The position numbers and the translations under genes are program-made. A stretch of 64,000 bases of DNA. It comes from Gammaproteobacteria bacterium UBA3067. Its GTDB lineage: Bacteria; Pseudomonadota; Gammaproteobacteria; Pseudomonadales; UBA3067. Numbering within the stretch: position 1 is the stretch's first letter; each line of letters begins with the position of its first letter. Location: the NCBI GenBank assembly GCA_002366835.1, contig DFBZ01000060.1:83011-147010 (forward strand). The letters are read 5' to 3'. This document shows, piece after piece, positions 1,714 to 60,414 of the stretch. The notes below the pieces were generated by a model, which saw nothing but the letters and a program-made list of their open reading frames with translations, was not told where the DNA came from and did not search any database.

Positions 1714-1992
1714 CCCAGCACACTCCTTCTAACAAGCAGAACAAAGCCGCCAAGTGTAAACATAAGAGCCATCCAGTAAAAGAGGCCAATGACATTTAAG
1801 ACCCCGAACAAGACGCTTCCAAATCAATACCTTGCAAACCTTGTCTGTTATTTTTGTCATGCTCCAGATAATAAAAGGCCGACCCGCTCACATATAATTT
1901 TTTACAAATCGCTATGCTAAACAGCTGCGCCATAAACTAACATTAAAACTATCGAGGGCTAGCGAGCCCACTTTGTCCTTTTATCTTTCCAC

Positions 1993-2139
1993 CTAGCAGG
2001 CTGTTAAAATTCGCTGAGTTGAGCCAGATACAAGGAAAAATTAAGCGAAAAAGCGGAGTTTACACCTGTAAATGAGCACTTTGAGCGCGATTTTTACGCT
2101 GTAGATGGCCAAGTCAGTAGAATTTCAACAACCTGCTAG
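1993..2139. repeat. Structured intergenic repeat, copy A (147 bp, MITE/ERIC-like, no ORF)
   Basis: Outer arms are CTAGCAGGCTGTTAAAATTC and GAATTTCAACAACCTGCTAG (18/20 complementary). Imperfect pairing extends to about 39 bp per arm. About 90% identical to copy B at 51018-51186. Confidence 0.85.
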
Positions 2140-3052
2140 AAACCAAATACAACAAATACACTCATACAAATCAACTGCGGACCCCCTATCAGTGAGCTCA
2201 AGTGAACTATTAACCGCCAACAAGCTAGTCGAAAGAATAGACATCCCCTCCCAACCCGAACTACTTATATCTATAAACTTAGAGGCGCAAAAGGAGCGTT
2301 GTAATTTTGATCTAGTGGCTGAAATGATCAGCAATGACATTAGTATCGCTTCCGAAGTACTGAAAACGGTTAACAGCCCGCTCTTTGGCTTACGCAAAAG
2401 TGTCACGTCCATTCAGCAGGCGGTTGGCCTGATGGGCTTACACCGGGTTATCGGACTGGTTAGAAATGTCTCTCTGAGGAAGAGCGTTAGCAAGGGCCTG
2501 AATCTCGAATCCTTCTGGCAGTCTGCTACGAAGAATGCCCAAACCTGTGCGCTAATTGCAAAAAAAACAAATCTTATTGATGCCGAAGAGGCCTACACCT
2601 TCGGCCTGTTTCACGATGCAGGCATCCCCATCCTGATGCAAAACTATTCCGACTATCAAAGCAGCCTAAAAGACGCATCAATGCAGTCAGGCTTAGAAGG
2701 CACCAAAGCAGAGGACACTATTTACAAAGTGAATCACGCCACTGTTGGCTACTACTTGTGTGACAAATGGTTTCTACCCGAGCATATCTGTAAAGCCGTG
2801 TATTACCATCACCGTAGCCATTTCATGTTCAATAAAACAAAAGCTTACGACAGCCCATTCATTATTTTATTGTCGTTACTGGTAACATCTCAGCATATTA
2901 TTGGCGCGAAGAGTCAAGTCGAAGCTGAGAGGGAATACCCAAACCTATGGAATGAAATGCAATTCCCGTTACAGGAAATATTTAAGCTTGATGAAGAAGC
3001 GTACAGCGCCCTTATCGCCGACATTAACGAACAGCTAGAAGCCACGAATTGA
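2105..3052 (+). CDS. HDOD-domain signalling protein (start uncertain)
   Basis: HDOD-type N-terminal region: LPSQPELLISINLEAQKE...DLVAEMISNDISIASEVLKTVNSPLFGLRKSVTSIQQAVGLMGL, then FGLFHDAGIPIL. The first 12 codons lie inside repeat copy A, so the ORF-track ATG at 2105 may not be the real start. Confidence 0.7.
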   Translation: MAKSVEFQQPARNQIQQIHSYKSTADPLSVSSSELLTANKLVERIDIPSQPELLISINLEAQKERCNFDLVAEMISNDISIASEVLKTVNSPLFGLRKSVTSIQQAVGLMGLHRVIGLVRNVSLRKSVSKGLNLESFWQSATKNAQTCALIAKKTNLIDAEEAYTFGLFHDAGIPILMQNYSDYQSSLKDASMQSGLEGTKAEDTIYKVNHATVGYYLCDKWFLPEHICKAVYYHHRSHFMFNKTKAYDSPFIILLSLLVTSQHIIGAKSQVEAEREYPNLWNEMQFPLQEIFKLDEEAYSALIADINEQLEATN

Positions 3053-3077: not shown

Positions 3078-3280
3078 ATCGACGAAGGGGGGCTTACTAA
3101 GCTTGTGAGCTCCTCTACTACCATTCCCAACGCCTACCGCCGAGGCATTATTTCCAGCAAAACAGCCCCTTCAGAACATATCACCACAAGCCAAATCTCA
3201 TGTTACTGTCGCGCGCGATTCAATGTTTCATCAAATTTATTAGCGGAGGAATTTCCCATAAACGGCACCCATCATCCATA

Positions 3281-3352
3281 ATCCTAGAAACCGCAGTTGA
3301 AGTACAAAATTCTGTACAAGCTCTTGCCGCACCCAACTGAGGCTTCTAGGAT
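3281..3352. repeat. Structured intergenic repeat, copy F (72 bp), same TIR family as 60248-60414
   Basis: Arms are ATCCTAGAAACCGCAGTTGA and CCAACTGAGGCTTCTAGGAT (17/20 complementary). The right arm's reverse complement matches the left arm of copy E at 18/20 positions. Lies upstream of asnS. Confidence 0.6.
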
Positions 3353-3394
3353 AATCACTGTCAGTTGCTTAATAACAAAATATGGATGAACGCC

Positions 3395-4795
3395 ATGAAA
3401 CAAGCCATGATCAAACAGATACTTGCGGACAAATTTACCGAGGATGAAACCATCACCATCAAAGGTTGGGTCCGCACCCGCCGCGATTCAAAGGGTGGCT
3501 TTTCATTTCTCAGCATCAGTGATGGCAGCTGCTTTTCACCGTTACAAGTGATTGCAGACAATAAACTCGACAACTACTCCGATGAACTATTGCACCTTAC
3601 CGCTGGGTGCAGCGTCATTGCCACGGGAAAGCTGGTTCGCTCTCAGGGGAAAGGCCAGAGTTACGAGATTCAGGCCAGCACGATCACGGTTACTGGCTGG
3701 GTCGAAGATCCAGAAAGTTATCCCATCTCTCCCAAACATCACACCATGGAGCATCTGCGCAGTGTTGCCCACTTGCGCCCCCGCAGTAATACCTTTGGTG
3801 CGGTAACCCGTGTGCGTCACCACTTGGCTCAAGCCATTCATCGTTATTTCCACGAACAGGGTTTTTACTGGGTAAATACCCCCATCATCACAGCCAGCGA
3901 CTGCGAAGGCGCGGGGGAAATGTTTCGGGTGAGCACGCTAGATACGGCAAACCTTCCTTTCACGCCAGAAGGACACGTGGACTACAACCAGGATTTTTTT
4001 GGCAAAGAAGCCTTCCTGACAGTTTCGGGCCAACTTAACGTAGAAAGCTATTGCTTGGCCATGTCCAAGGTATATACCTTTGGCCCCACCTTCCGTGCCG
4101 AAAACTCCAACACCAGCCGACATCTGGCAGAATTTTGGATGGTGGAACCGGAAATAGCCTTCGCCGACCTGTCCGATGTCTCCAACCTGGCGGAATCCTT
4201 TCTCAAATACGTTCTGGCTGCCGTACTTGAAGAGCTACCTGATGACATGGACTTTTTCGCCAAGCGCGTTGATAAGGAAGCCGTCACTCGCATTGAATCG
4301 GTGCTGAATACCCCCTTTGAAAGAATTGAGTACAGCGACGCCATCAACATTCTCCAGCGCGCGAAACACAAGTTTGAATACCCTGTGGAATGGGGCATAG
4401 ACCTACAGTCAGAACATGAGCGTTATTTGTGCGAAAAACATGTCAAAGGCCCGACTATCGTAATGAATTACCCCAAGGATATTAAAGCGTTTTACATGCG
4501 CCTCAACGATGACGAGAAAACCTGCGCGGCCATGGATATTCTTGCGCCAGGTATTGGCGAAATTATCGGCGGCAGCCAGCGGGAAGATCGCCTGGATATT
4601 CTCACCCAGCGCATGCTACAAGCTGGGCTTAAGCCCGAAGATATGGCTTGGTACCTCGACCTGCGCCGTTACGGCAGCGTACCACACGGCGGATTTGGAC
4701 TAGGCTTTGAGCGCCTGATTAACTATATCACCGGCCTGGAGAATATTCGTGATGCGATTCCTTTTCCAAGAACCCCAAAGCATGCGCCTTATTAA
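3395..4795 (+). CDS. asnS: Asparagine--tRNA ligase
   Basis: Collinear with E. coli AsnS as I remember it: [41 protein letters not shown] and GFGLGFERL. The ORF opens at TTG 3365. The ATG at 3395 gives the N-terminal spacing seen in E. coli. ATG 3386 is an alternative. Confidence 0.95.
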
Positions 4796-4873
4796 AGAGA
4801 ATGAAGACAAAGCGGTGAGCAAACGCGATTCCCGCTTTATTTTACAAAAAATCGAAACGATTCAGCGAGCTCT

Positions 4874-4994
4874 GTAACTATTCATATCGCGCTCAAATTT
4901 GCGCAGAACAAGGCGAAAGATGTGAGTTTATAAGTATAAATGATCATTTTTTAACACAATTATGTGCAAATTTGAGCGCGATATGAATAGTTAC
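4874..4994. repeat. Structured intergenic repeat, copy C (121 bp, 32-bp arms)
   Basis: Arms are GTAACTATTCATATCGCGCTCAAATTTGCGCA and TGTGCAAATTTGAGCGCGATATGAATAGTTAC (31/32 complementary). Lies between convergent asnS and the NlpC/P60 gene. The central 57 nt carries the core shared with copies A, B and E. Confidence 0.8.
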
Positions 4995-5000
4995 AAAAGA

Positions 5001-5510
5001 TTATAAGCGGCGGGCCACCCAGTAGGAGGATTTCCAGTAAGGGTTATCCAAACGCGAAACCGTTACGCCTTTGCTAGTAGAAGCATGTAAAAAACGCCCG
5101 TCACCCATATAAATTCCAACGTGACGAGTGAAAATAGCCGTTTTAAAAAATATCAGATCCCCCGCCTGGATATTTTTTTGGCGAATCGACTTACCCAGCG
5201 AGACCTGCAGCTCTGCAGTGCGTGGTAGGTTGATGGCAAATTTATCGCGAAATGTCAGCATGACAAAACCCGAACAATCCACGCCCGACTTTGACAAACC
5301 ACCTAAGCGGTAATTCACTCCACGCCAATGAGAATATTGCCCCCGAAGTCGAGATTCAATCTGTCTGGCATTTAAGTGAGTCCATTGTTCAACACCGTCT
5401 CCCCTTAGCTTTGGGCTACTCAAGGGCACGCAGCCAGAAAATAGAAGCAAAAAGAATAATAGCCTCCCTTTCCAGCTCACAATTACTTCCGATAAAAACT
5501 TAATAGTCAC
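5001..5510 (-). CDS. NlpC/P60 (C40) peptidoglycan endopeptidase lipoprotein
   Basis: Lipobox LFSGC. Catalytic Cys context GVDCSGFV, followed by HVGIYMGDGRFLHAS, as in Spr/MepS-type enzymes. Confidence 0.85.
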   Translation of the reverse strand: MTIKFLSEVIVSWKGRLLFFLLLFSGCVPLSSPKLRGDGVEQWTHLNARQIESRLRGQYSHWRGVNYRLGGLSKSGVDCSGFVMLTFRDKFAINLPRTAELQVSLGKSIRQKNIQAGDLIFFKTAIFTRHVGIYMGDGRFLHASTSKGVTVSRLDNPYWKSSYWVARRL

Positions 5511-26764: not shown

Positions 26765-29700
26765 TCAGGGCAGCTTGAAAAAAGGATCCAGATAATAGGC
26801 CCCCAAGCCGGAAGTCACATCTTTCTCCCACCAGATGTTAAACATATAGACCTCTTCTTCCCTATCCTCATCTGAATCAAAGTCTCCGCTGTCTGCCGTA
26901 ATACTCTCCAAAGAGTACATCTTAGGACTTGTTCCACCCAGATCAACACTGATGTAATCTGTCGTTAAGTCAATTGTCCACGCACCTGCTTCCTCAACAG
27001 AGCCGTTTGACAACCACTCATAGGTGTTAGGCGAGCCTTGAGCAAAGAGCATACGTTCCGTTTGACCCCATACGATTGCAAATTCCCCCACAATGTCTGC
27101 CTCTGCTGTGATATCAACACCATTCGCCGATTCTGCTATGAACGCATCGAAGGGAACGAGACGTAAAGTTAAATAAGAGAGATCCATCGCACCGTTTTGA
27201 ATCACCACCACCTCCGGATGATAAGTATCATTAAACTCAGCCAAGGCAATTTGGTGCTTATCACCGCTACTGGCAATAGTAATTTGCAGGTTTCCATCCC
27301 CATCCACCAACCATGTCATCGCTTCATCTATCGAACCATCATCAGCCCCGTTAGAAAGCAACTCTTGCTCACGCACCCATCGACCACCATCACCGCTGCC
27401 ATCAAACACGTAGTTATCAATAACGAAATGGATATCCGTAACAAACTCTCGTCCAATTCCAAAACCCGCCACACCAAAGCTGCTACCACTGGTTATTGTG
27501 CTATTGGCAGCAAAATCAACGCCGTTACCACTGGCTGCAAGAAATTCGGCAGGCAAAGGTGCTGGTGCCGTGTAGCTAAAGGCTGTTTTAAACTGATCCA
27601 GCGCAACAGTATTGAACATCAGATCCTGCTCAACCGATCCCGCTGCAAAGACGGCTCCGCTGCGAACAATATTTCCGTATCCACCGAGCTCAGTAATGGT
27701 ATCCACAAAGAAGAAATGCTTAAGATCGCCATCCTCAATATCAACATTACTTAGGTCAACCACTGCCTGCGGCGTAACGAACTCAACGACCTCTACGCCA
27801 CCTTTGTGTATCACTTCGTAGCTAACGGTAATACCTGTGTCGACATAGGAGTTTTTGTAGAAGCGCACCGTGGGGTTGGCCCCAGCCACCGTACCATCGC
27901 TTGAAACAAGGTAAGCATTAACGTCATATTCATTACTACCATCATTGCCACGACCGACCCATATACCCACTCCATTACCGTTAGCTGGGTCGAAACTGGC
28001 AGAGCTGCTTATAATGTCACTCAATGTGGTTGCCGGCACAGGCTCCCAGTTACCACTGCCAACAGGCTTTTCTAACTGGTCTACGGGCACAATACCTTCG
28101 CAGGAAAGTCCCGTTTCATCAAACCAGTCATCCCAACGACTCCAGTTATTGTCACACCAAAAAATATAGGCCTCAGCAGTATTACTTTCGCTTGCTAGGT
28201 AAGCTCGCGCACCTGTGGCAAAGGAGGGGTTTCCAGGAAGGCCATCTGCAAAATTACCGTCGAGAATATCCAGCATGATCCTGTCTTCAATGTTGTATTC
28301 CTCAAGGTCTACATGCCTTATTAGGTGATCAACAATTACTCCAGATTTTGTTAATTTCAGAACAGCCGTTTCAGGTGCTGCGGCATAACCATCAATTTGT
28401 AATATGTCGTCGGCAATATCTACATCTCCACTGCTGCTCAGATAACCTTCTTCGCCCACCGCATTCGCTGTTGAGTCGACCCATACCGTATCGATCTCAT
28501 CCCAGGAGAACTGGGTTTCCAGAGCATCGGAAATAACTCCGTATTTAAAACCCCAGTCTCTATCAGCTTCCAGCCAAACAATGCCACTGGCACCAATGGG
28601 CTGCTCTCTGACGTCTACTGGCAGGGTCGCACTGACGTTAAATATTGCCGTACACGCTGAGCCGCCAGTATTCGTATTGCCGGTCCAAGTTCCGGTAAAT
28701 TTGCCAGCGCCCTCGCTGAATGTTCCGGTAAAGCTGTCTGAAACATTAGCCGTAGCATCCACGCCCGAAAAGGTAAAAGTGCCATCAGGCTGTATGGTTC
28801 CTGTGTATAGCCAGTCATCATTCATGTTACTAACGGTCAGAGCAGTACCAACCTGTTCAAACTGCCAGAACTCGGAACCGCTTTCACCAACAACACTCAG
28901 GCAACTACTACTGTCGACATCCCACTCGGTGCCCGAATCAGCACTGTAGTCTTGCAGGTAAATACCGCTCATGTCAGGGATTGCTGCTTCACAGGCATCG
29001 CCTATGCCATCGCCGTCATCAACACCGTTGGTATCTAGCTGATCTGAGTTAGAAACTAAAGGACAGTTATCAGTAGCATCACCGACGGTATCGCTGTCGG
29101 TATCTTCATTAAACGGGTCGGTGCCTAGACCTAGCTCATCAACATCCAACACGCTATCGTTGTCGTCATCGGCATCACAGGCATCGCCTTCGGTATCACC
29201 GTCGTTGTTAACCTGGTTAGTATTGGCAATCTCTGGGCAGTTATCCAGATCATCAATCACTGTGTCTAAGTCAGTGTCCAATTCACATGCATCGCCTATG
29301 CTATTTGAGTTCAAATCAGCTTGATCTGCATTAGCTGTAAATTGACAGTTATCAGGGGCAGCATCCAGCACGCCATCATTGTCATCATCGGTATCACAGG
29401 CATCACCTTCGGCGTCGCCGTCGTTGTTAGCCTGATCGGTGTTTGCATCAACCGAGCAGTTATCACCATTGTCGCCCACGGTATCGCTGTCGGTATCAAC
29501 TGTTTCAGCTGGATCTGCTGGGAAGGCATCAGCATTATCACCCACGCCATCGCTGTCAGTATCCGTAGTTTCAGCCGGGTCTGCTGGGAAGGCATCGGCG
29601 TTATCACCTACACCATCACTGTCGGTATCAGTTGTTTCAGTCGGATTTACCGGGAAAGCATCGGCGTTATCACCTACACCATCGCTGTCGGTATCTGCAG

Positions 29701-31696
29701 TTTCAGCTGGATCTGCTGGGAAGGCATCAGCATTATCACCCACGCCATCGCTGTCGGTATCCGCAGTTTCAGTCGGATCTACCGGGAAGGCATCGGCATT
29801 ATCACCCATACCATCGCTGTCGGTGTCCGCAGTTTCAGCTGGATCGGCTGGGAAAGCATCAGCATTATCACCCACGCCATCGCTGTCGGTATCCGCAGTT
29901 TCAGTTGGATCTGCTGGGAAGGCATCAGCATTATCACCCACGCCATCGCTGTCAGTATCCGTAGTTTCAGCCGGGTCTGTTGGGAAGGCATCTGAATTGT
30001 TGCCCACGGTGTCGCTATCTGTATCTAGGGCCTCTAAAGGGTCGGTGGGGAATTGATCTACACCATCAGAAAAACCATCCGAGTCTGTATCCCACAGTAA
30101 AGGATCAGTTCCATCCAAACCTTCCTGGGTATCAGAAACACCGTCTCCATCTTTGTCGGTGTCACTGTTATCGCCTATATTATCACCATCCAAATCGCTG
30201 TCTTCGGCACTATCCAAGGGAAACAAATCATCTACATCGAGCACACTGTCCTCATCATCATCGCCATCACAGACATCACCACCGTCGCCTAAACCATCGG
30301 TGTTCAGCTGGTCAGGGTTAGCGTTCAATGGACAGTTATCTGTACCGTCATTGATAACGCCATCGCCGTCGGCATCGTTTGAGCAGGCATCGCCTTCGCC
30401 ATTCGCATCCGTATCTATTTGATCCGTATTGGCAGCCAATGGACAGTTATCAACTCCGTTATTTATAGTATCGGAATCACGATCCAGGGCTGGATCTAAA
30501 AAGGCACTGTTATCAAGGGGGTAGTCATCATCATTATCCGCCCAACCGTCATTATCGTCATCAGTGTCGGCATTGTTACCAATAAAGTCTCCATCCGTAT
30601 CAAGCTGTTCGGCTGGATCTTCTGGAAACGCGTCATCAGCATTTAGCACTGAGTCGCCGTCAAGATCAGAGTTTGTTTCTGCTGGCTCTGACTCCACATT
30701 AATCGTGTCAAGCGCGGTAGTGTCTGTTGTTTCTCCAGTAACGGTAGTTTCGTCTCGCAACTCTTGCTCAATATCAGCAACCAGAATAGTCGTGTTAGGA
30801 ATGGTCAAAGTTGCTGGATCCTGGCTTAACACGTCTAGTGCAGGTGCTTCGTAGACCGTACTCGCAACTCCACCGACGGTTCCATCAATTTCACCATCGG
30901 CCAAATCATTGGCCAGCTCAGTTAAAATTTCACCTGTATCACCAGTAACAGATAACTTTTGCATCTCATAAGCTATAGCCGTTAATGCTTCTATAGCAGT
31001 TCGGTATGCGGCCACGGAAGCCTGCTCTTCTGTTGTGTCAGTCGTACTGTCAATCAAAGGAGGCGTATCAAAAATATCAACCGTTTCATCCAAACCAAAA
31101 CCCATGGTGGATTTGACCTGAGAAGCAGCGGTAAGCAAGGCGGCTTCAAAAGAAGCGCCATCAAGCGAAGCTGGGTCTGCAATGGCAATATCCACCGCCA
31201 TGGTTGTCAGCGGTGTTGCATAAATCTGTTCACCGGAATCCAGCAATGCCTGGGTTACCACCGTTCGCATAGTAGTGATAACAGGCGCCAGACCTGTAGT
31301 AATGTCGGTTGTATCAGTATCGGAGGTAACTTCTAGAATATAAGGAGGGGCCAAAGGAAAAGCTAAAGATAGATTCTGTATCTGCGCCTGTGCATTGGTA
31401 GAGCCGCTTCCTGCAACACTGCCTTTCATTCCAGGCCCTGATGGTTCAATGTTGTAGACAGTCACCACGGCGTTGGCCAGCGGCCCTTTAATGCCACCCC
31501 CTGTTAGTGCGAGTGTCGCGGTATCGGCGTTGGTATTACCGCCAGTATTATTCGTACCGTTTTCTTCTGCAGCAGGATCATTGCGGTGCGAATCGCTACA
31601 CCCTGCGAAAAAAGAAAGCAGCACTAGATAAGTAATTACGTGAACCAGACTGCGGGTTGGTACACATTGAGCTAGGCGCATTATAAATCCCCTCAC
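26765..31696 (-). CDS. Giant (1643 aa) surface lipoprotein with thrombospondin type-3 (TSP3) Ca-binding repeats and an uncharacterised ~780-aa C-terminal region
   Basis: Lipobox LSFFAGC followed by S. Dozens of DxDxDGxxDxxD motifs, both the cysteine-containing form (DNCPLxxNxDQxDxDxDGxGDAC) and a Cys-free form (DTDSDGVGDNADAFPADP). Confidence 0.8.
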   Translation of the reverse strand: MRGFIMRLAQCVPTRSLVHVITYLVLLSFFAGCSDSHRNDPAAEENGTNNTGGNTNADTATLALTGGGIKGPLANAVVTVYNIEPSGPGMKGSVAGSGSTNAQAQIQNLSLAFPLAPPYILEVTSDTDTTDITTGLAPVITTMRTVVTQALLDSGEQIYATPLTTMAVDIAIADPASLDGASFEAALLTAASQVKSTMGFGLDETVDIFDTPPLIDSTTDTTEEQASVAAYRTAIEALTAIAYEMQKLSVTGDTGEILTELANDLADGEIDGTVGGVASTVYEAPALDVLSQDPATLTIPNTTILVADIEQELRDETTVTGETTDTTALDTINVESEPAETNSDLDGDSVLNADDAFPEDPAEQLDTDGDFIGNNADTDDDNDGWADNDDDYPLDNSAFLDPALDRDSDTINNGVDNCPLAANTDQIDTDANGEGDACSNDADGDGVINDGTDNCPLNANPDQLNTDGLGDGGDVCDGDDDEDSVLDVDDLFPLDSAEDSDLDGDNIGDNSDTDKDGDGVSDTQEGLDGTDPLLWDTDSDGFSDGVDQFPTDPLEALDTDSDTVGNNSDAFPTDPAETTDTDSDGVGDNADAFPADPTETADTDSDGVGDNADAFPADPAETADTDSDGMGDNADAFPVDPTETADTDSDGVGDNADAFPADPAETADTDSDGVGDNADAFPVNPTETTDTDSDGVGDNADAFPADPAETTDTDSDGVGDNADAFPADPAETVDTDSDTVGDNGDNCSVDANTDQANNDGDAEGDACDTDDDNDGVLDAAPDNCQFTANADQADLNSNSIGDACELDTDLDTVIDDLDNCPEIANTNQVNNDGDTEGDACDADDDNDSVLDVDELGLGTDPFNEDTDSDTVGDATDNCPLVSNSDQLDTNGVDDGDGIGDACEAAIPDMSGIYLQDYSADSGTEWDVDSSSCLSVVGESGSEFWQFEQVGTALTVSNMNDDWLYTGTIQPDGTFTFSGVDATANVSDSFTGTFSEGAGKFTGTWTGNTNTGGSACTAIFNVSATLPVDVREQPIGASGIVWLEADRDWGFKYGVISDALETQFSWDEIDTVWVDSTANAVGEEGYLSSSGDVDIADDILQIDGYAAAPETAVLKLTKSGVIVDHLIRHVDLEEYNIEDRIMLDILDGNFADGLPGNPSFATGARAYLASESNTAEAYIFWCDNNWSRWDDWFDETGLSCEGIVPVDQLEKPVGSGNWEPVPATTLSDIISSSASFDPANGNGVGIWVGRGNDGSNEYDVNAYLVSSDGTVAGANPTVRFYKNSYVDTGITVSYEVIHKGGVEVVEFVTPQAVVDLSNVDIEDGDLKHFFFVDTITELGGYGNIVRSGAVFAAGSVEQDLMFNTVALDQFKTAFSYTAPAPLPAEFLAASGNGVDFAANSTITSGSSFGVAGFGIGREFVTDIHFVIDNYVFDGSGDGGRWVREQELLSNGADDGSIDEAMTWLVDGDGNLQITIASSGDKHQIALAEFNDTYHPEVVVIQNGAMDLSYLTLRLVPFDAFIAESANGVDITAEADIVGEFAIVWGQTERMLFAQGSPNTYEWLSNGSVEEAGAWTIDLTTDYISVDLGGTSPKMYSLESITADSGDFDSDEDREEEVYMFNIWWEKDVTSGLGAYYLDPFFKLP
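29475..30046 (-). repeat. In-frame 66-bp tandem repeat, about 8.5 units (22-aa unit DTDSDGVGDNADAFPADPAETA)
   Basis: Units begin at 29475, 29541, 29607, 29673, 29739, 29805, 29871 and 29937, an exact 66-bp phase. Most are roughly 85-95% identical at the nucleotide level by eye. Confidence 0.9.
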
Positions 31697-39312: not shown

Positions 39313-39327
39313 ATTGCTGAATAAATA

Positions 39328-39349
39328 ATCCTAGAAACCGCAGTAGGAT
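39328..39349. repeat. Minimal 22-bp derivative (copy G) of the copy-F/E repeat
   Basis: ATAATCCTAGAAACCGCAGT at 39325-39344 is identical over 20 nt to 3278-3297. It then jumps directly to the right end, ...TAGGATAA. Confidence 0.5.
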
Positions 39350-39354
39350 AACAA

Positions 39355-43947: not shown

Positions 43948-47975
<4,028 letters not shown>

Positions 47976-48116: not shown

Positions 48117-50978
48117 ATGCAAGCACATGTTCAGCCCCCCACACCACAACACTTAAGCTATTCCCCCCGCTCACTCCAGCTCCGTCTTTTTATTTTTTTA
48201 GCGTTACTGCCTTGTCTGCTGCACCCAACAAATAGCCATGCAATTGATCCACGACTAGACTGGTTTAGCTTAGCAACGCCGCATTTTATTATTCACTTCC
48301 CTGAAGAAAACGAGGCGCTTGCTGAGCTTATTGCCGAAAGAGCCGAGAGCGCCCACAAAGAACTCTCCCCCTGGTTTAATTGGCAGCCAAAAGAAAAAAC
48401 CCACATCGTCCTTAATACGAGTGAAAGCCGAGCAAACGGTTCCGCTTTCGCCATCCCTTATAATCGCATCGAACTAAACATGGTCATTCCCGAAGCAGGA
48501 GGCAACCTGTCAGACTTTGCTGATTGGTGGACACTGCTAATCACCCATGAGTACGCACACATCCTCCACCTAGATAAAAAAGTGGGAGTTCCTCTTTTCC
48601 TGCGCCAAACCCTTGGCCGTGTTCCAGCATTTTATCCCAACCTGTTTCAACCTCGCTGGATTATTGAAGGCCTCGCCACCTATATTGAAACCGATAATGA
48701 AAATCAAACCGGCCGCGGCCAAAGCAGCGCCTTCAATATGATGATCAACGAAGAACTCGGCCAGGGTTTAAAATCACTGCGCCAAATCAACATTCATGAA
48801 AGCAACTGGCCCTACAGCAGCGCCTACCTGTATGGCAGCTATTTTTTTGAATTTCTTGAACAGGAATATGGTGAAGAAAAAACCAAAGCCTTTATTGCTG
48901 AATACAGCAACAACATCATCCCCTTCGCACTGAATACCACCAGCAGCACTGTTTTTGACAAATCTCTTTACAGCTTGTGGAAAGACTATGAACACTATTT
49001 AAAAACCAATATCGCCATCCCCGCCTTAGCTGGAGACAAACAACAGGCGCTTACCGAAAAAGGATACCTACAAGGCCCATTACAAAGCGACAATGACAGG
49101 GCGCTATTATTTATTCAAAACAATGGTGAACGTCACACAGCACTATGGAAAATAAACCAACAGGGAGACAAAGAGAAAATAACAGAACTGCAATCAGGTG
49201 CATCCTTCGACTTCCACAAGCGCGGTGGTTTCATCATCAGCCAAGCGGAAGTCTGCGAAGAATATAACGTATATTATGACCTCTTTATTCTCACCAAGAA
49301 CGACACTACTCCACAACAAATTACGCACTGCGCACAATACCACTACGCCAGCTGGCACCCATCGGGAAATAAAATTGCAGCCATAAAGGTAAACCCTTTA
49401 TACAGCCAAATCGACCTACTTAAAAAAGATGGCTCCTTCATAAAGACCCTCTGGAAAAGCAATAAAAACGAGCGCCTCAGTGCTTTAGACTGGAATCAAG
49501 ATGGCAGCAAAATAATCACCTCTTTACATAAAACTAATACTGGATGGAACCTTTATGAGCTAGATACTAACAAAGGCTCTATGCGCAGCCTGACAAATGA
49601 CTGGGCGGAAAAGTCTGCGCCACGGTACCAGAAAAATGGGCACATCATCTATTCCGCCGATTACGATGGCGTGAGTAATATCTATAAAATAAATTCGACA
49701 AGCGGAAAGGTTTTAAAACTTAGCCAGGGAAATAAAGGCAAATTCCACCCCCTATTGACTGAAAAAAACGAAACGTCACACCTAAGCTATATGCAATATG
49801 GCCCCACAGGCCTCAACATATACCAACAAAAAGAAATCATCGCTAATGCCTACACCGTTAAACCTGATTTACGGATAACAGAAAATAAAAAGGCAACAGA
49901 AAAAGTTACGCCATATTCACCAGCAAACACAGCACAGGGCTACTCCCCATGGCCATCTTTAATCGCACCCAGCTGGATACCGAATTTTTTTGTTTCCAGT
50001 GATCAAAGTTTTATTGGAGCGATACTTATGGGTGCCGATGCACTGCAAAACCATAAGTACGAAATCTCCCTCGCCTACGAGGCGCAATATGAACAGCTCT
50101 ACAGCAATATAAACTATCAATACAATGACCGCCTATTTATCAACTATGAACATGATAAGCGTTATTTTTTCTCACAGGAAAGGCTCGACTTCATTCTCAA
50201 CACAGACCAGATCGAAGCTTACTACCTCGTCCCAAGTTCAACACTGGAAGCACAATGGAATATTCTGCTCGGTGGCGAGTTTATTTATAATTCATGGGAT
50301 CAATTCTCACCTTTTTTTATTAAGCCGGATTCATCACGAAGCCAGCTACTTGGCGTTGCTGTTTTATACAACAGTAGCCACCGCTATTTACGAGGTATTA
50401 GCGATACTGAAGGGCGACAAGTTTATGTGGCGGCGGAAAATATCCGTCTATTTGACAATAATATCCGTGGCGATAGCCTGACATTTGACTGGCGCGAATA
50501 TATCCCCCTTAGCGACGCTCACACTCTTGCGTTGCGTGGCGTCCATGCCCGAAGCTCCTCACCCAGTGTTCGCTATTTTCTTGGCGATGATTTCAGCGAT
50601 CCTTTCAATAATATCGGCAACATATTCAATCGCCAAGATTACCCCTTAAGGGGATACGATCAGTCTCTCGAAAAACTCAGCGGGAATCGCTTATTCCTAG
50701 GCAGTGCCGAGTGGCGCTTCCCCATTACCAATATCGAACGCACACTTATGTCTCCTCCGGTGGGAATACAAAAAGTACATGGCAAGCTGTTTATAGAATC
50801 TGGCGCAGCCTGGACAGCGGGTATCAATGAGAGGGAGTTCTACAGCAGCAGGGGCGTCGAACTAATCGCTGAAGCAAGATTATTTTATTACTACCCCGTT
50901 AATCTGCGCTTGGGTTACGCAAAAACAGAAGAAAAAGACGGGGATAACTTTTATGGCAGTCTTGGGGTATCCTTCTAA
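48117..50978 (+). CDS. Predicted outer-membrane protein: HExxH metalloprotease-like region, TolB-like beta-propeller and Omp85-type barrel
   Basis: Signal peptide ...PTNSHA/ID. THEYAHILH with a downstream IIEGLATYIE. WD40-like/TolB repeats (SWHPSGNKIAAIK, DWNQDGSKIITS, YSADYDGVSNIYKIN). DYPLRGYD, an Omp85 L6-like (V/L)RG(F/Y) motif. C-terminal ...GSLGVSF. The ORF opens at TTG 48084. Confidence 0.6.
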   Translation: MQAHVQPPTPQHLSYSPRSLQLRLFIFLALLPCLLHPTNSHAIDPRLDWFSLATPHFIIHFPEENEALAELIAERAESAHKELSPWFNWQPKEKTHIVLNTSESRANGSAFAIPYNRIELNMVIPEAGGNLSDFADWWTLLITHEYAHILHLDKKVGVPLFLRQTLGRVPAFYPNLFQPRWIIEGLATYIETDNENQTGRGQSSAFNMMINEELGQGLKSLRQINIHESNWPYSSAYLYGSYFFEFLEQEYGEEKTKAFIAEYSNNIIPFALNTTSSTVFDKSLYSLWKDYEHYLKTNIAIPALAGDKQQALTEKGYLQGPLQSDNDRALLFIQNNGERHTALWKINQQGDKEKITELQSGASFDFHKRGGFIISQAEVCEEYNVYYDLFILTKNDTTPQQITHCAQYHYASWHPSGNKIAAIKVNPLYSQIDLLKKDGSFIKTLWKSNKNERLSALDWNQDGSKIITSLHKTNTGWNLYELDTNKGSMRSLTNDWAEKSAPRYQKNGHIIYSADYDGVSNIYKINSTSGKVLKLSQGNKGKFHPLLTEKNETSHLSYMQYGPTGLNIYQQKEIIANAYTVKPDLRITENKKATEKVTPYSPANTAQGYSPWPSLIAPSWIPNFFVSSDQSFIGAILMGADALQNHKYEISLAYEAQYEQLYSNINYQYNDRLFINYEHDKRYFFSQERLDFILNTDQIEAYYLVPSSTLEAQWNILLGGEFIYNSWDQFSPFFIKPDSSRSQLLGVAVLYNSSHRYLRGISDTEGRQVYVAAENIRLFDNNIRGDSLTFDWREYIPLSDAHTLALRGVHARSSSPSVRYFLGDDFSDPFNNIGNIFNRQDYPLRGYDQSLEKLSGNRLFLGSAEWRFPITNIERTLMSPPVGIQKVHGKLFIESGAAWTAGINEREFYSSRGVELIAEARLFYYYPVNLRLGYAKTEEKDGDNFYGSLGVSF

Positions 50979-51017
50979 AGTACCAAGGTATTGAGAACAG
51001 GGAAACAAGCTTTTCTG

Positions 51018-51186
51018 CTAGCAGGCTGTTGAAATTCGCTGAATTGAGTCAGATATAAGGCAAAATCAAGCGAAAAAGCGGAGTTTACACGTGTAAATGA
51101 GTACTTTGAGTGCGATTTTACCGAGAGTAGGCGCCTTAAGCGACGCAGTAGATGGCCAAGTCAGTAGAATTTCAACAGCCTGCTAG
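51018..51186. repeat. Structured intergenic repeat, copy B (169 bp)
   Basis: Perfect 20-bp arms CTAGCAGGCTGTTGAAATTC and GAATTTCAACAGCCTGCTAG. About 90% identical to copy A, plus a ~22-nt internal insertion (CGAGAGTAGGCGCCTTAAGCGA). Confidence 0.85.
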
Positions 51187-51220
51187 AAAAGCCCTGTGGT
51201 TTATTAATAGAGGAAACAAA

Positions 51221-51913
51221 ATGCTTAACTGGCAAGACATTGATACCGTATTACTGGATATGGATGGCACCCTGCTGGATTTGCACTTTGACAACTATTT
51301 CTGGCTTCAGTACCTGCCTGAAAAATATGCCTCGACACAAAACATTTCACTGGATGACAGCAAAGAAGCGCTGCGGCAACGCTACCAGAGCCAAAGTGGC
51401 AAACTGAATTGGTACTGCCTTGATTTTTGGGGCAAGGAGCTGGCATTAGATATTCTGGAGCTAAAACGAGACATTCGCCACTTGATCGCGTTCCGGCCCC
51501 ATACCGAACACTTTCTGAAGCACTTAGAGGCCAACAATAAAAAGCGCATTTTACTCACTAATGCACACCCAGATAGCCTGCAGCTCAAGCTCGAACACAC
51601 CCAGCTGCATGAATATCTGGACGTCATACATAGCAGTCATCACTTCAACAAACCCAAAGAAGACCAGCAATTCTGGCCAGCTTTCCTAAAAAAAGAACAC
51701 CTGGATATTTCCCGCACGCTGCTTATCGATGACAGCATCGCGGTACTGGATAACGCCCGCGAATTTGGCTTTCAACACCTCCTTACAATAGGCCAACCGG
51801 ATAGCCAGCAAGCGCCAAAATCCAACGAAAATTATAAAACCATTCACTGTTTTACCCATATCACGCCAAACACTGGAGATAGCCTGCCTGTCCAGAAGCC
51901 AGCATCCCAATGA
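51221..51913 (+). CDS. yrfG: HAD-family GMP/IMP nucleotidase
   Basis: From MLNWQDIDTVLLDMDGTLLDLHFDNYFW... to RILLTNAHP and LLIDDS, collinear with E. coli YrfG as I remember it. The ORF-track start at 51152 lies inside repeat copy B and is rejected. Confidence 0.75.
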   Translation: MLNWQDIDTVLLDMDGTLLDLHFDNYFWLQYLPEKYASTQNISLDDSKEALRQRYQSQSGKLNWYCLDFWGKELALDILELKRDIRHLIAFRPHTEHFLKHLEANNKKRILLTNAHPDSLQLKLEHTQLHEYLDVIHSSHHFNKPKEDQQFWPAFLKKEHLDISRTLLIDDSIAVLDNAREFGFQHLLTIGQPDSQQAPKSNENYKTIHCFTHITPNTGDSLPVQKPASQ

Positions 51914-53786: not shown

Positions 53787-55340
53787 ATGACTCGTCACTC
53801 AGAAACCCCTTCTGTTTACCAAGATCTCAGCCCAGCGCAGCTTCAGGAACTAGCCATCTTGCGCGGAGAAGGACGCCTGTCCGACACTGGCGCATTGGTT
53901 GTAAATACCGGCGCTCGTACTGGTCGCTCACCGAAAGACCGCTTCATCGTTGACGAGCCAAGCACTGCCGAGCACATTCACTGGGGCCCAGTAAACCGTC
54001 CTTTCCCAACTGACAAATTTGATGCTCTTTGGGAGCGCGTTGAAGAGTTCACCTCCGCAGACACTGTTTTTAAGGCAGACCTCCACGTCGGTGCCGACCC
54101 TGATCACTACCTGGCCGTTAAGGTCAGCACCCAAACTGCTTGGCACAACATGTTCGCCCAAACCATGTTTATTCGCCCAACGCATTTCAACCCGAAAGGT
54201 AAAGAGCCGTGGCAAATTCTGCATGCACCTGAATTCATCTGCGAGCCAGAGCGCGATGGCACCAACAGCGAAGGCTGCGTCATCATCAACTTTGCCCAGC
54301 GCAAAGTACTGCTCGCAGGCATGCGATATGCTGGCGAAATGAAGAAAGCCATGTTCTCTGTACAGAACTTCCTCCTTCCCGAAAAAAATGTTTTGCCAAT
54401 GCACTGCGCAGCAAATGTTGGCGAAGATGGCGGGGTTGCATTGTTTTTTGGACTATCAGGAACCGGAAAAACCACCCTTTCGGCAGACCCTGAGCGCTAC
54501 TTGATTGGTGACGATGAGCATGGCTGGGACAAAGGCAGCGTGTTCAATATCGAAGGCGGCTGCTATGCAAAGTGCATTAACCTAAGCAAAAAAAATGAGC
54601 CTGTAATCTGGGACGCCATCAAATTCGGCACCGTACTTGAGAATGTAATCGTTGATGAAGAGGCTCGCACCTCTGATTATAACGATGTATCCCTCACCCA
54701 GAATACCCGCGCTGCCTACCCGCTTGAGCACGTAGAAATGCGCCAGGAGGCCAACCGCGCAGGTGAGCCCAAGCACGTTATCTTCCTGACATGCGACCTG
54801 ACCGGCGTACTTCCTCCCGTATCCAAGTTAAGTAATGAAGCTGCGGCTTATCACTTTCTGAGTGGTTACACTGCGCTAGTTGGCAGCACTGAAATCGGCT
54901 CATCTGCCGAAATCAAATCCACCTTCAGCACCTGCTTTGGCGCACCCTTCTTCCCCCGCCCTGCCAAAGATTACGCAGAGTTACTGATAAAACGTATCAC
55001 TGAGTTCAACTCCAGCGTATTCCTAGTAAATACTGGCTGGACTGGCGGGCCCTACGGCGAAGGTGAGCGCTTCGACATCCCCACCACACGAGCCATTATT
55101 CGCGGTATTCTTACCGGCACCCTTGATAATGTAAAAACCACGCACATTGACAAAATAAACCTTGATGTCCCGGTTGCGGTGCACGGTGTAGAAACGGAAT
55201 TACTGATTCCTCAGAACACCTGGAAAGACCCGAAAGCCTACGAAGAAAAAGCGAACGACCTGGCCAAACAGTTCCAGGAAAACTTCGCGAAATACGACGT
55301 ACCTGAAGAAATCGTTAAAGCCGGCCCTCAAGTCGACTAA
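53787..55340 (+). CDS. pckA: Phosphoenolpyruvate carboxykinase (ATP)
   Basis: [35 protein letters not shown]. Confidence 0.97.
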
Positions 55341-60207: not shown

Positions 60208-60247
60208 ATCTATCCTCCAGCTAGCACCCCGCCCCAAACAAACCTTA

Positions 60248-60414
60248 AACCTAGAAACCTCAGTTGGGCGCGAAAAAGATGTGCAAGATATTGGCGTGAA
60301 TAGGGAATTTTAAAAATTCGTGTTCACCTTATTGGTGATGAGAACTTTTTAAAATTTTCTAGATGCGTCAAGGGCTTGTACAGACTTTCGTGATCCAACT
60401 GAGGTTTTTAGGTT
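60248..60414. repeat. Structured intergenic repeat, copy E (167 bp, 20-bp arms)
   Basis: Arms are AACCTAGAAACCTCAGTTGG and CCAACTGAGGTTTTTAGGTT (19/20 complementary). The arms are related to copies F and G. The interior carries the GCGAAAAAGATGTG... core shared with A, B and C. Lies in the divergent fliL-like/dsbB promoter region. Confidence 0.7.

Follow-up and report, generated by a model that had tools for sequence, protein, structure and literature searches.

The window, meaning the whole stretch of DNA analysed here (64,000 nucleotides), holds two copies of one short palindromic repeat, each lying on the forward strand just upstream of a gene in the same orientation. Copy A precedes a gene for an HDOD-domain protein, and copy B precedes yrfG, which encodes a GMP/IMP nucleotidase of the HAD family. 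The features on which the argument turns are listed below.

1993 to 2139, + strand: copy A of the repeat, a probable MITE; 147 bp including CTAG at each end; left inverted repeat 1993-2012, right inverted repeat 2120-2139
2105 to 2107, + strand: element ATG of copy A, in the right arm; false start of the 315-aa longest ORF
2192 to 3052, + strand: gene for the HDOD-domain protein; true coding sequence of 286 aa, starting at GTG 2192, 52 nt downstream of copy A
51018 to 51186, + strand: copy B of the repeat, a probable MITE; 169 bp including CTAG at each end; left inverted repeat 51018-51037, right inverted repeat 51167-51186
51152 to 51154, + strand: element ATG of copy B, in the right arm, with TAG directly 5' of it; false start of the 253-aa longest ORF
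51187 to 51220, + strand: native leader of yrfG, 34 nt, with ribosome-binding site GAGGA at 51210-51214; identical in the element-free contig L004 and unchanged by the insertion
51221 to 51913, + strand: yrfG (GMP/IMP nucleotidase, HAD family); true coding sequence of 230 aa, starting at ATG 51221

Structure of the repeat and the N-terminus shared by two genes

The element is bounded by perfect terminal inverted repeats of 16 bp (CAGGCTGTTGAAATTC ... GAATTTCAACAGCCTG), with CTAG flanking both sides. The 5' end of either window copy reads CTAGCAGGCTGTTRAAATTC and the 3' end is the reverse complement of CTAGCAGGCTGTTRAAATTC; taken as 20-nt arms that include CTAG, the ends are complementary at 100% of positions in copy B and 90% in copy A. 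Beyond the perfect repeats, imperfect pairing continues over ~35 nt, with about 31 pairs. The two copies are 89-96% identical, copy B corresponding to the common 147-bp form with a 22-nt internal insert that copy A does not carry. A search of the window for the 20-nt end motif CTAGCAGGCTGTTGAAATTC returned four occurrences, all of them at copies A and B, compared with 0.02 expected by chance. A fifth match, at 45789, has three mismatches and falls within the coding region of a 972-aa ORF, and it was set aside as a chance match; positions 4873-4995, considered as a diverged third copy, were likewise rejected, their core similarity being non-significant (E = 0.18 and 1.3).

The right arm carries an ATG that lies 35 nt before the element end and directly 3' of a TAG, and its frame is the sole one that stays open through to the end of the element. 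Read from this point, the arm runs TAG-ATG GCC AAG TCA GTA GAA TTT CAA CAR CCT GCT AG and then, across the element boundary, N. Residues 1-11 (MAKSVEFQQPA) are accordingly element-encoded, and codon 12 is made up of the terminal AG and the base next to the element; at both window copies this base is A, giving R. A sequence-only reading of the window had observed that the ORFs at 2105 and 51152 open with the same MAKSVEFQQPAR, supplied by the right arm of the repeat, and the ORF translations bear this out: the longest ORFs, 2105 to 3052 and 51152 to 51913, share MAKSVEFQQPAR as their first 12 residues.

Native start codons and an empty insertion site

For yrfG, the same reading had placed the true start at ATG 51221, and this placement held. 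Against the NCBIfam profile NF011564 the extended ORF scores 247 bits (cut-off 189), with residues 24-240 aligning to profile positions 4-220 of 225; residue 24 is the ATG at 51221, and GAGGA stands six bases upstream of it. The exact 230-aa YrfG is called on eight public contigs, one of which, L004 (JGI 3300027852), is without the element. This contig shares the upstream gene end and has an identical yrfG; its site is empty, with CTAG present once, and reads ...GCTTTTCTGCTAGAAAAGCC... (longer form ...AAGCTTTTCTGCTAGAAAAGCC...), while the filled site, in the window and in contig L003, reads ...TTTTCTG-CTAG-[165 nt]-CTAG-AAAAGCC.... Comparison of the two states indicates that the whole unit is an insertion with a duplicated CTAG, or with a duplicated TA within CTAG, and the suggestion that the repeat is mobile is thereby borne out. 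At the empty site, no start codon comes between the in-frame stop and the equivalent of ATG 51221.

The HDOD gene had been described, correctly, as having no ATG until codon 74, with a GTG near 2192 as a possible start, and here too orthologs and element-free loci agree. Within the extended ORF, the in-frame GTG at 2192 is codon 30 (V30), and the nine closest orthologs (P0001-P0009, 61-95% identity) all begin at this position; HDOD orthologs are mostly 286 aa long, with lengths of 283 and 288 aa also seen. The element is absent from two orthologous HDOD loci (L007 and L008), both of which keep the GTG and the 35 nt upstream of it and have no ATG, GTG or TTG between that GTG and the upstream in-frame stop. 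A third locus (L010) also keeps the GTG and 35 nt upstream; its contig begins 43 nt upstream of the GTG, placing the insertion site off the contig. The Pfam HDOD domain starts at residue 47 of the extended ORF. In protein look-ups, forms starting from codon 71 or 74, or a 286-aa form with V for M, gave no match. The comparison with orthologs that the sequence-only reading had named as a refuting test thus came out on the side of the native starts, with repeat-free orthologs being without the MAKSVEFQQPAR extension, and the true start codons of yrfG and the HDOD gene can be regarded as settled.

Protein records point the same way. Exact look-ups of the extended 315-aa and 253-aa proteins in a collection of ~15 billion proteins returned no match, whereas the native-start forms of 286 and 230 aa are present and stand on the NCBI record, on the same contig that carries other window proteins. 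The shared N-terminus had been called false from the outset, and with the extended forms off record and the native forms recorded, it is a product of the longest-ORF listing and not of public annotation.

We then consider the element ATG itself. Direct reading found no ribosome-binding site 5-10 nt before it in copy A or copy B, and in the minimum-energy fold of either copy it is predicted to be base-paired. A scan for sigma-70-like promoters, confined to that class, gave no site in or around the two copies; a TTGAAA-19 nt-TATAAG arrangement, seen by eye in copy B within the left arm, matches a promoter poorly, has too long a spacer and is not conserved in copy A, and it was discarded. Across the family the codon varies, with GTG, CTA and ATA in other copies and TTG in a relative from P. 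veronii. Translation from the element ATG would be unlikely, as it has no ribosome-binding site, is predicted to lie paired within a hairpin whose folding energy is -61 to -70 kcal/mol, and is followed by intact native ribosome-binding sites and starts 34 and 52 nt past the element. Its use would be excluded on comparative and sequence arguments only.

A dispersed family and its probable mode of transposition

Scanning metagenome contigs with an exact 21-nt core pattern yielded 46 loci, and a profile search was then used to find copies. The search gave 49 strong copies, which occupy about 44 distinct insertion sites, in the 46 marine metagenome loci; as the metagenome copies were chosen by core match, core conservation within the family is biased upward. 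A contig end truncates about half of the metagenome copies, which a multi-copy repeat would lead one to expect; 25 are full length, and the 147-bp form is the commonest. Several related strains or species are probably represented among these copies. The sample identifiers give the habitat as 'marine' and nothing finer. Among 185,579 species-representative genomes, the right-arm 20-mer was found in one copy, upstream of mgtE in the Cellvibrionales MAG NORP45. Element length ranges from 147 to 205 bp across the family, and the longest internal reading frames, by direct sequence reading, span ~10-30 codons, the element being too small to hold a transposase gene.

The end tetranucleotides are CTAG, TTAA, CTAA or TTAG, and all ends fit YTAR. 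The same tetranucleotide stands at both ends in 12 of the 16 copies for which both ends are available (nine CTAG/CTAG, three TTAA/TTAA), and three end pairs with a single-base mismatch all differ at the outermost base. Palindromic CTAG and TTAA targets fit a 4-bp duplication, a TA duplication or a YTAR-adjacent insertion that leaves no duplication.

Taken together, and apart from a partner IS, the repeat has the properties by which bacterial MITEs are recognized: it is small, has no transposase gene, carries terminal inverted repeats, occupies many unrelated sites and is present or absent between near-identical strains, with one CTAG at the empty site and two at the filled site. We consider it very probable that the repeat is a non-autonomous DNA transposon (MITE) whose ATG falls in frame by chance and so produces false N-termini. 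Such an element would be moved in trans by a DDE transposase that recognizes its terminal inverted repeats and inserts it at YTAR. Going by the duplicated site only, the enzyme is most likely of the IS5 family, with a 4-bp duplication; an IS630-type enzyme duplicating TA within CTAG is an alternative that fits the target data equally well. The element ends may also resemble those of the IS5 family.

No autonomous IS with the same terminal inverted repeats was found in ~414 kb of retrieved loci, in a plasmid collection searched with blastn or in viral contigs. The single viral-contig match to the terminal repeat lies inside a coding sequence and was discarded as chance, and an IS630 transposase beside the P. 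amygdali relative was rejected as a partner, since it belongs to another IS that has ends of its own and sits in the TA flanking the MITE. Compared by description, the element comes closest among documented ones to MITEPsy1 of P. syringae pv. phaseolicola, an IS5-family element derived from ISPsy2 that inserts at CTAG or YTAA with a 4-nt duplication, as shown experimentally (PMC3189936). Like the present element, with its ends of CTAG, TTAA, CTAA or TTAG, MITEPsy1 is a small gammaproteobacterial element with terminal inverted repeats and no transposase gene, and it alters reading frames and gene ends on landing near genes. It differs in being 100 nt long, in its 18-nt repeats (GGAAGGTCTGAAAAAGCC) and in having a known partner IS, whereas the window copies measure 147 and 169 nt and have other repeats.

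Orientation relative to neighboring genes was counted with crude gene calls, made by a longest-ORF heuristic with the elements masked. By these calls there are 13 sites where the right arm points to the start of a gene and 18 where it points to the end of one, and the 19 sites with genes on both sides divide into six tandem co-oriented, five tandem opposed, seven convergent and one divergent. The family as a whole does not favor gene 5' ends. Landing immediately 5' of genes in the same orientation, as had been suggested, stands for the two window copies, both of which lie in 5' leaders, and does not extend to the family. Four of the 13 co-oriented sites are in frame (spacing 1 modulo 3), matching the one-in-three expectation and indicating that frame coincidence is at chance level. 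Three of these are open, namely the two window copies and L001, and the last has the codon CTA in place of ATG.

A longest-ORF rule extends a gene back to the element ATG whenever a copy precedes it in the same orientation, the spacing is 1 modulo 3 and the stretch in between is free of stops. Copies A and B satisfy the spacing, orientation and open-frame conditions by chance, so that the HDOD gene and yrfG come by the same spurious MAKSVEFQQPAR. The shared N-terminus is an ordinary annotation artefact, left by what is very probably a MITE with an accidental ATG in its open exit frame.

Relatives of the element occur on plasmids. In blastn searches, the element as query matched by its centre only, while a Halomonas relative as query matched by the centre and part of the right arm; the relatives are palindromic elements of ~145 nt flanked by TTAA or CTAG. 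A replicon of Halomonas sp. PA16-9 carries them at up to six places, depending on the query, and the relative on a P. veronii plasmid, with terminal repeat CAAGCCGTTGAAAAAC, is clearly of the same type. Further relatives were found on plasmids of P. amygdali, P. tremae, P. cerasi and P. syringae and on a Candidatus Fukatsuia plasmid. A centre of ~60 nt (...CAAGGCAAAAA..CGAAAAAGCGGAGTTTAC-N4-5-TGTAAATGAGCAyTTTGAG...) is conserved better than the terminal inverted repeats and is 77-88% identical among the marine Cellvibrionales lineage, Halomonas, several Pseudomonas species and the aphid symbiont. A centre more conserved than the arms is unusual for MITEs. Literature searches on the terminal-repeat and core strings found no description of the element, which very probably represents a MITE family of uncultured marine Cellvibrionales that had not been described before; it has an exact empty site, and relatives in Halomonas and Pseudomonas.

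Alternative readings of the hairpin, the centre and the ATG

Both copies are predicted to fold into a single long hairpin, of -61.2 kcal/mol (z = -7.4) for copy A and -70.5 kcal/mol (z = -6.9) for copy B. If transcribed, the copies would add a long stem to the 5' leaders of both genes, and it is plausible that this could alter mRNA processing or stability. A further step would be to suppose that the MITE has been retained at both sites as a regulatory 5'-UTR module, acting as a target of RNase III or RNase E, as an mRNA stabilizer or as a translational attenuator. Such a module would bear out the rewiring of 5' UTRs that the sequence-only reading had suggested, in spite of the false N-terminus. 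Besides the very stable predicted folds, the position of the copies speaks for such a module, as they would separate any promoter further upstream from the native ribosome-binding site, the starts being 34 and 52 nt away, and Correia and ERIC elements have effects of this kind (PMC10969869). A few arm positions also co-vary with pairing kept, the pairs 28/179 and 32/175 having changed on both sides; paired changes of this sort are, however, equally expected from both terminal inverted repeats having to bind one transposase. Against retention, strains with an empty yrfG site exist, indicating that the element is dispensable there, and the family shows no bias of orientation or position toward gene starts. 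Overall, we regard a retained regulatory module as unlikely.

Searches for known RNA elements and signals were negative: the covariance models of Rfam 15 gave no match at gathering score across the whole window and none at E <= 1 in 50950-51260, and a scan for intrinsic terminators found none within either element copy. A candidate IHF site (WATCAANNNNTTR) in the core was rejected, since on direct sequence reading the TTR part is not matched by AATCAAGCGAAAA.

Correia elements (CREE/NEMIS) of Neisseria resemble the present element in being palindromic MITEs of ~100-160 bp that occur in multiple copies, mostly between genes and often near gene starts, in forming co-transcribed long hairpins (here predicted) and in giving rise to annotation ambiguities. 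Unlike it, they duplicate TA and have sigma-70 promoters, an IHF site and RNase III sites, whereas our element has no promoter match, no IHF consensus and no sequence similarity to Correia. Similarly, the ERIC/IRU elements of Enterobacteriaceae, at 127 bp not far from the 147 bp of the present element, are imperfect palindromes that lie between genes and are transcribed with their neighbors (here predicted). The centres, GGAGCTTACATAAGTAAGTGA versus GGAGTTTACACGTGTAAATGA, look alike by eye only; homology to ERIC was rejected, as local and global alignments reached z <= 2.4 against dinucleotide shuffles, which is non-significant, and a profile of the six-genus family ranked a real ERIC copy no higher than 500 shuffled copies.

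The conserved centre invites readings of its own. What is kept in it between genera is GGAG, a hairpin and ATG AGC AYT YTG, and the frame further downstream is not kept. A small peptide read from the core ATG (MSTLSAILTP*) was accordingly dismissed, neither its frame nor its length being kept between genera, and the stretch was classed as non-coding. The centre may be a relic of the 5' region of a parent IS. It could also be a selected functional module of a superfamily of hairpin elements, or itself a mobile unit that settles into palindromes, a pair of possibilities that we hold to be distinctly unlikely; as a module, it could be a small RNA, a mimic of translation initiation (GGAG-hairpin-ATG) or an assembly site for a host factor or transposase.

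Movement by a different enzyme class was weighed against the DDE transposase assumed for a MITE. The repeat might be a hairpin repeat, of the REPIN or palindrome-associated kind, whose single-stranded DNA a Y1/HUH transposase of the RAYT or IS200/IS605 type inserts beside a particular tetranucleotide, with no target duplication. The whole element forms one long hairpin, the right arm contains a GTAG motif, and the filled site can also be read as an insertion 3' of CTAG of an element that itself ends in CTAG; moreover, the divergence of the arms across genera around a maintained centre suggests that structure matters over terminal sequence. However, the end tetranucleotides change together (CTAG/CTAG, TTAA/TTAA), for which a target duplication is the simplest explanation, with some doubt left by the palindromic targets; the experimentally mobile IS5-type MITE has exactly this target and duplication, and the element ends in 16 nt of perfect inverted repeat, a feature of DDE transposons. 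No RAYT or TnpA gene was noticed in passing. We consider such an origin very improbable.

The repeat had finally been credited with possibly donating the start codon or promoter, but a functional 5' cassette of this type, resembling Neisseria REP2 and with the MAKSVEFQQPAR extension translated, can be given next to no credence: each window copy shares orientation and frame with the gene downstream of it, many family copies lie only 17-53 nt from a start codon and the native HDOD start is a GTG with a weak ribosome-binding site, yet the extension is missing from the same proteins in orthologs and in strains that lack the element, the element ATG has no ribosome-binding site, sits inside a predicted stem and is replaced in several copies (CTA and ATA among them), no sigma-70-like promoter match was found, only four of 13 co-oriented copies are in frame, gene ends are faced more often than gene starts, and the extended proteins are absent from the 15-billion-protein collection.

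Fusions between repeats and ORFs have been reviewed before, including repeats that donate promoter, ribosome-binding site and ATG, such as Neisseria REP2 (PMC3184786; PMC10969869). [quoted passage not shown] Rickettsia palindromic elements (RPE) are comparable in adding an in-frame peptide of their own to unrelated proteins, but RPEs lie within coding sequences and are believed to be translated, whereas the apparent fusion described here is upstream of the true starts. The mechanism is hence not new, as repeat-ORF fusions, MITEs targeting YTAR and hairpin MITEs in 5' leaders are all documented.

For a repeat that is very probably a MITE with a chance ATG, the practical consequences concern annotation and assembly. 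Longest-ORF or otherwise naive start calling gives unrelated proteins of this lineage a shared bogus N-terminus wherever the element faces a gene in frame. In addition, the element breaks metagenome assemblies exactly at gene starts: three other yrfG contigs begin inside the right arm of the repeat, as would be expected of assemblers breaking at a repeat.

Relatives of the MITE in other gammaproteobacteria

Elements related to the MITE were found in plasmid or replicon records (L057-L061) of other gammaproteobacteria, each a palindromic element of ~145 nt.

MITE cores in the window and related elements elsewhere
Window 2022-2087 and 51047-51112: MITE core in the two window copies
L057 1461-1608: relative, Halomonas
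L058 2479-2622: relative, P. amygdali
L059 2508-2648: relative, P. veronii
L060 ~1467-1606: relative, P. cerasi
L061 ~1475-1628: relative, Ca. Fukatsuia

Conservation resides in the central ~60 nt, at 77-88% across four orders of gammaproteobacteria; the arms of the inverted repeat, by contrast, are divergent. The cores of the relatives retain the arrangement GGAG-hairpin-ATGAGCAyTyTG, but not the reading frame downstream of it. TTAA or CTAG/TAGG flanks accompany the Halomonas, P. veronii and P. amygdali relatives; the ends of the P. cerasi and Ca. Fukatsuia copies are placed only approximately. No parent insertion sequence was found in the loci fetched, the plasmid collection or the viral contigs.

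The P. amygdali relative, on plasmid pCOR2250 of pv. aesculi, has an IS630-family insertion sequence as its neighbor (L058 1266-2480, two tandem copies), and the pair adjoins the relative precisely at the CTAG that flanks the latter (...CACAC-TA-GGGTCTG...). IS630 favors the TA within CTAG as its target; the duplicated site of the MITE therefore seems to serve as a target for IS630.

A subfamily with an altered right arm

In one group of copies on metagenome contigs, the right arm reads GTAGAAAAGCAAC in place of GTAGAATTTCAAC, which breaks the pairing with the left arm.

Copies with the altered right arm
L014 326-469
L022 10976-11122
L028 2526-2671 and 6890-7036
L039 177-323
L051 448-594

Just beyond the left end, most members carry a conserved TTCAGAGGTTCC or TAATCAGAGGCTCC, and this outside stretch is similar to the Halomonas-type terminal repeat. 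These copies may be chimeras, or one element nested in another.

Other repeats in the window

Window 4873-4995: inverted repeat separating two convergent genes, 3365..4795 (+) and 5001..5510 (-)
Window 28986-30484: tandem 66-nt (22-aa) repeats within ORF 26765..31696 (-), 1643 aa

The arms of the inverted repeat, 36 nt each and 94% complementary, lie 51 nt apart. By eye its centre resembles the core of the MITE (CAGAACAAGGCGAAAG..GAGTTTATAAGTATAAATGATCATTTT), yet the similarity was not significant (E = 0.18 to 1.3), and we rejected the stretch as a third, diverged copy of the element. At the orthologous locus L008 (12724-12795), diverged arms are kept and the 51-nt centre is absent. A short motif, TAAWCCTAGAAACCKCAGTWG, occurs at three apparently intergenic places (window 3278-3307, 39325-39354 and 60245-60274). 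It may represent an operator or promoter element, or the footprint left by a different repeat.

There are at least nine of the tandem repeats, and they code for aspartate-rich DxDxDGxxDxxD-type motifs (reverse complement of ATCAGCATTATCACCCACGCCATCGCTGTCGGTATC), a pattern that suggests a calcium-binding, thrombospondin-type-3-like repeat protein.

Features of the HDOD and pckA genes

Window 1956-1969 (+): G+C-rich hairpin, then a T-rich stretch (GGGCTAGCGAGCCC ACTTTGTCCT)
Window 53787-55340: pckA (PEP carboxykinase)

The hairpin lies in the divergent intergenic region 5' of the HDOD gene and, together with the T-rich stretch, is also kept at L007 and L008, the orthologous loci that lack the MITE. 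The hairpin may serve as a leader or attenuator element, or mark the end of a small transcript.

Within the 90%-identity cluster of pckA, two members measure 556 aa as against the usual 517 aa; some metagenome gene calls may here again have placed the start codon too far upstream.
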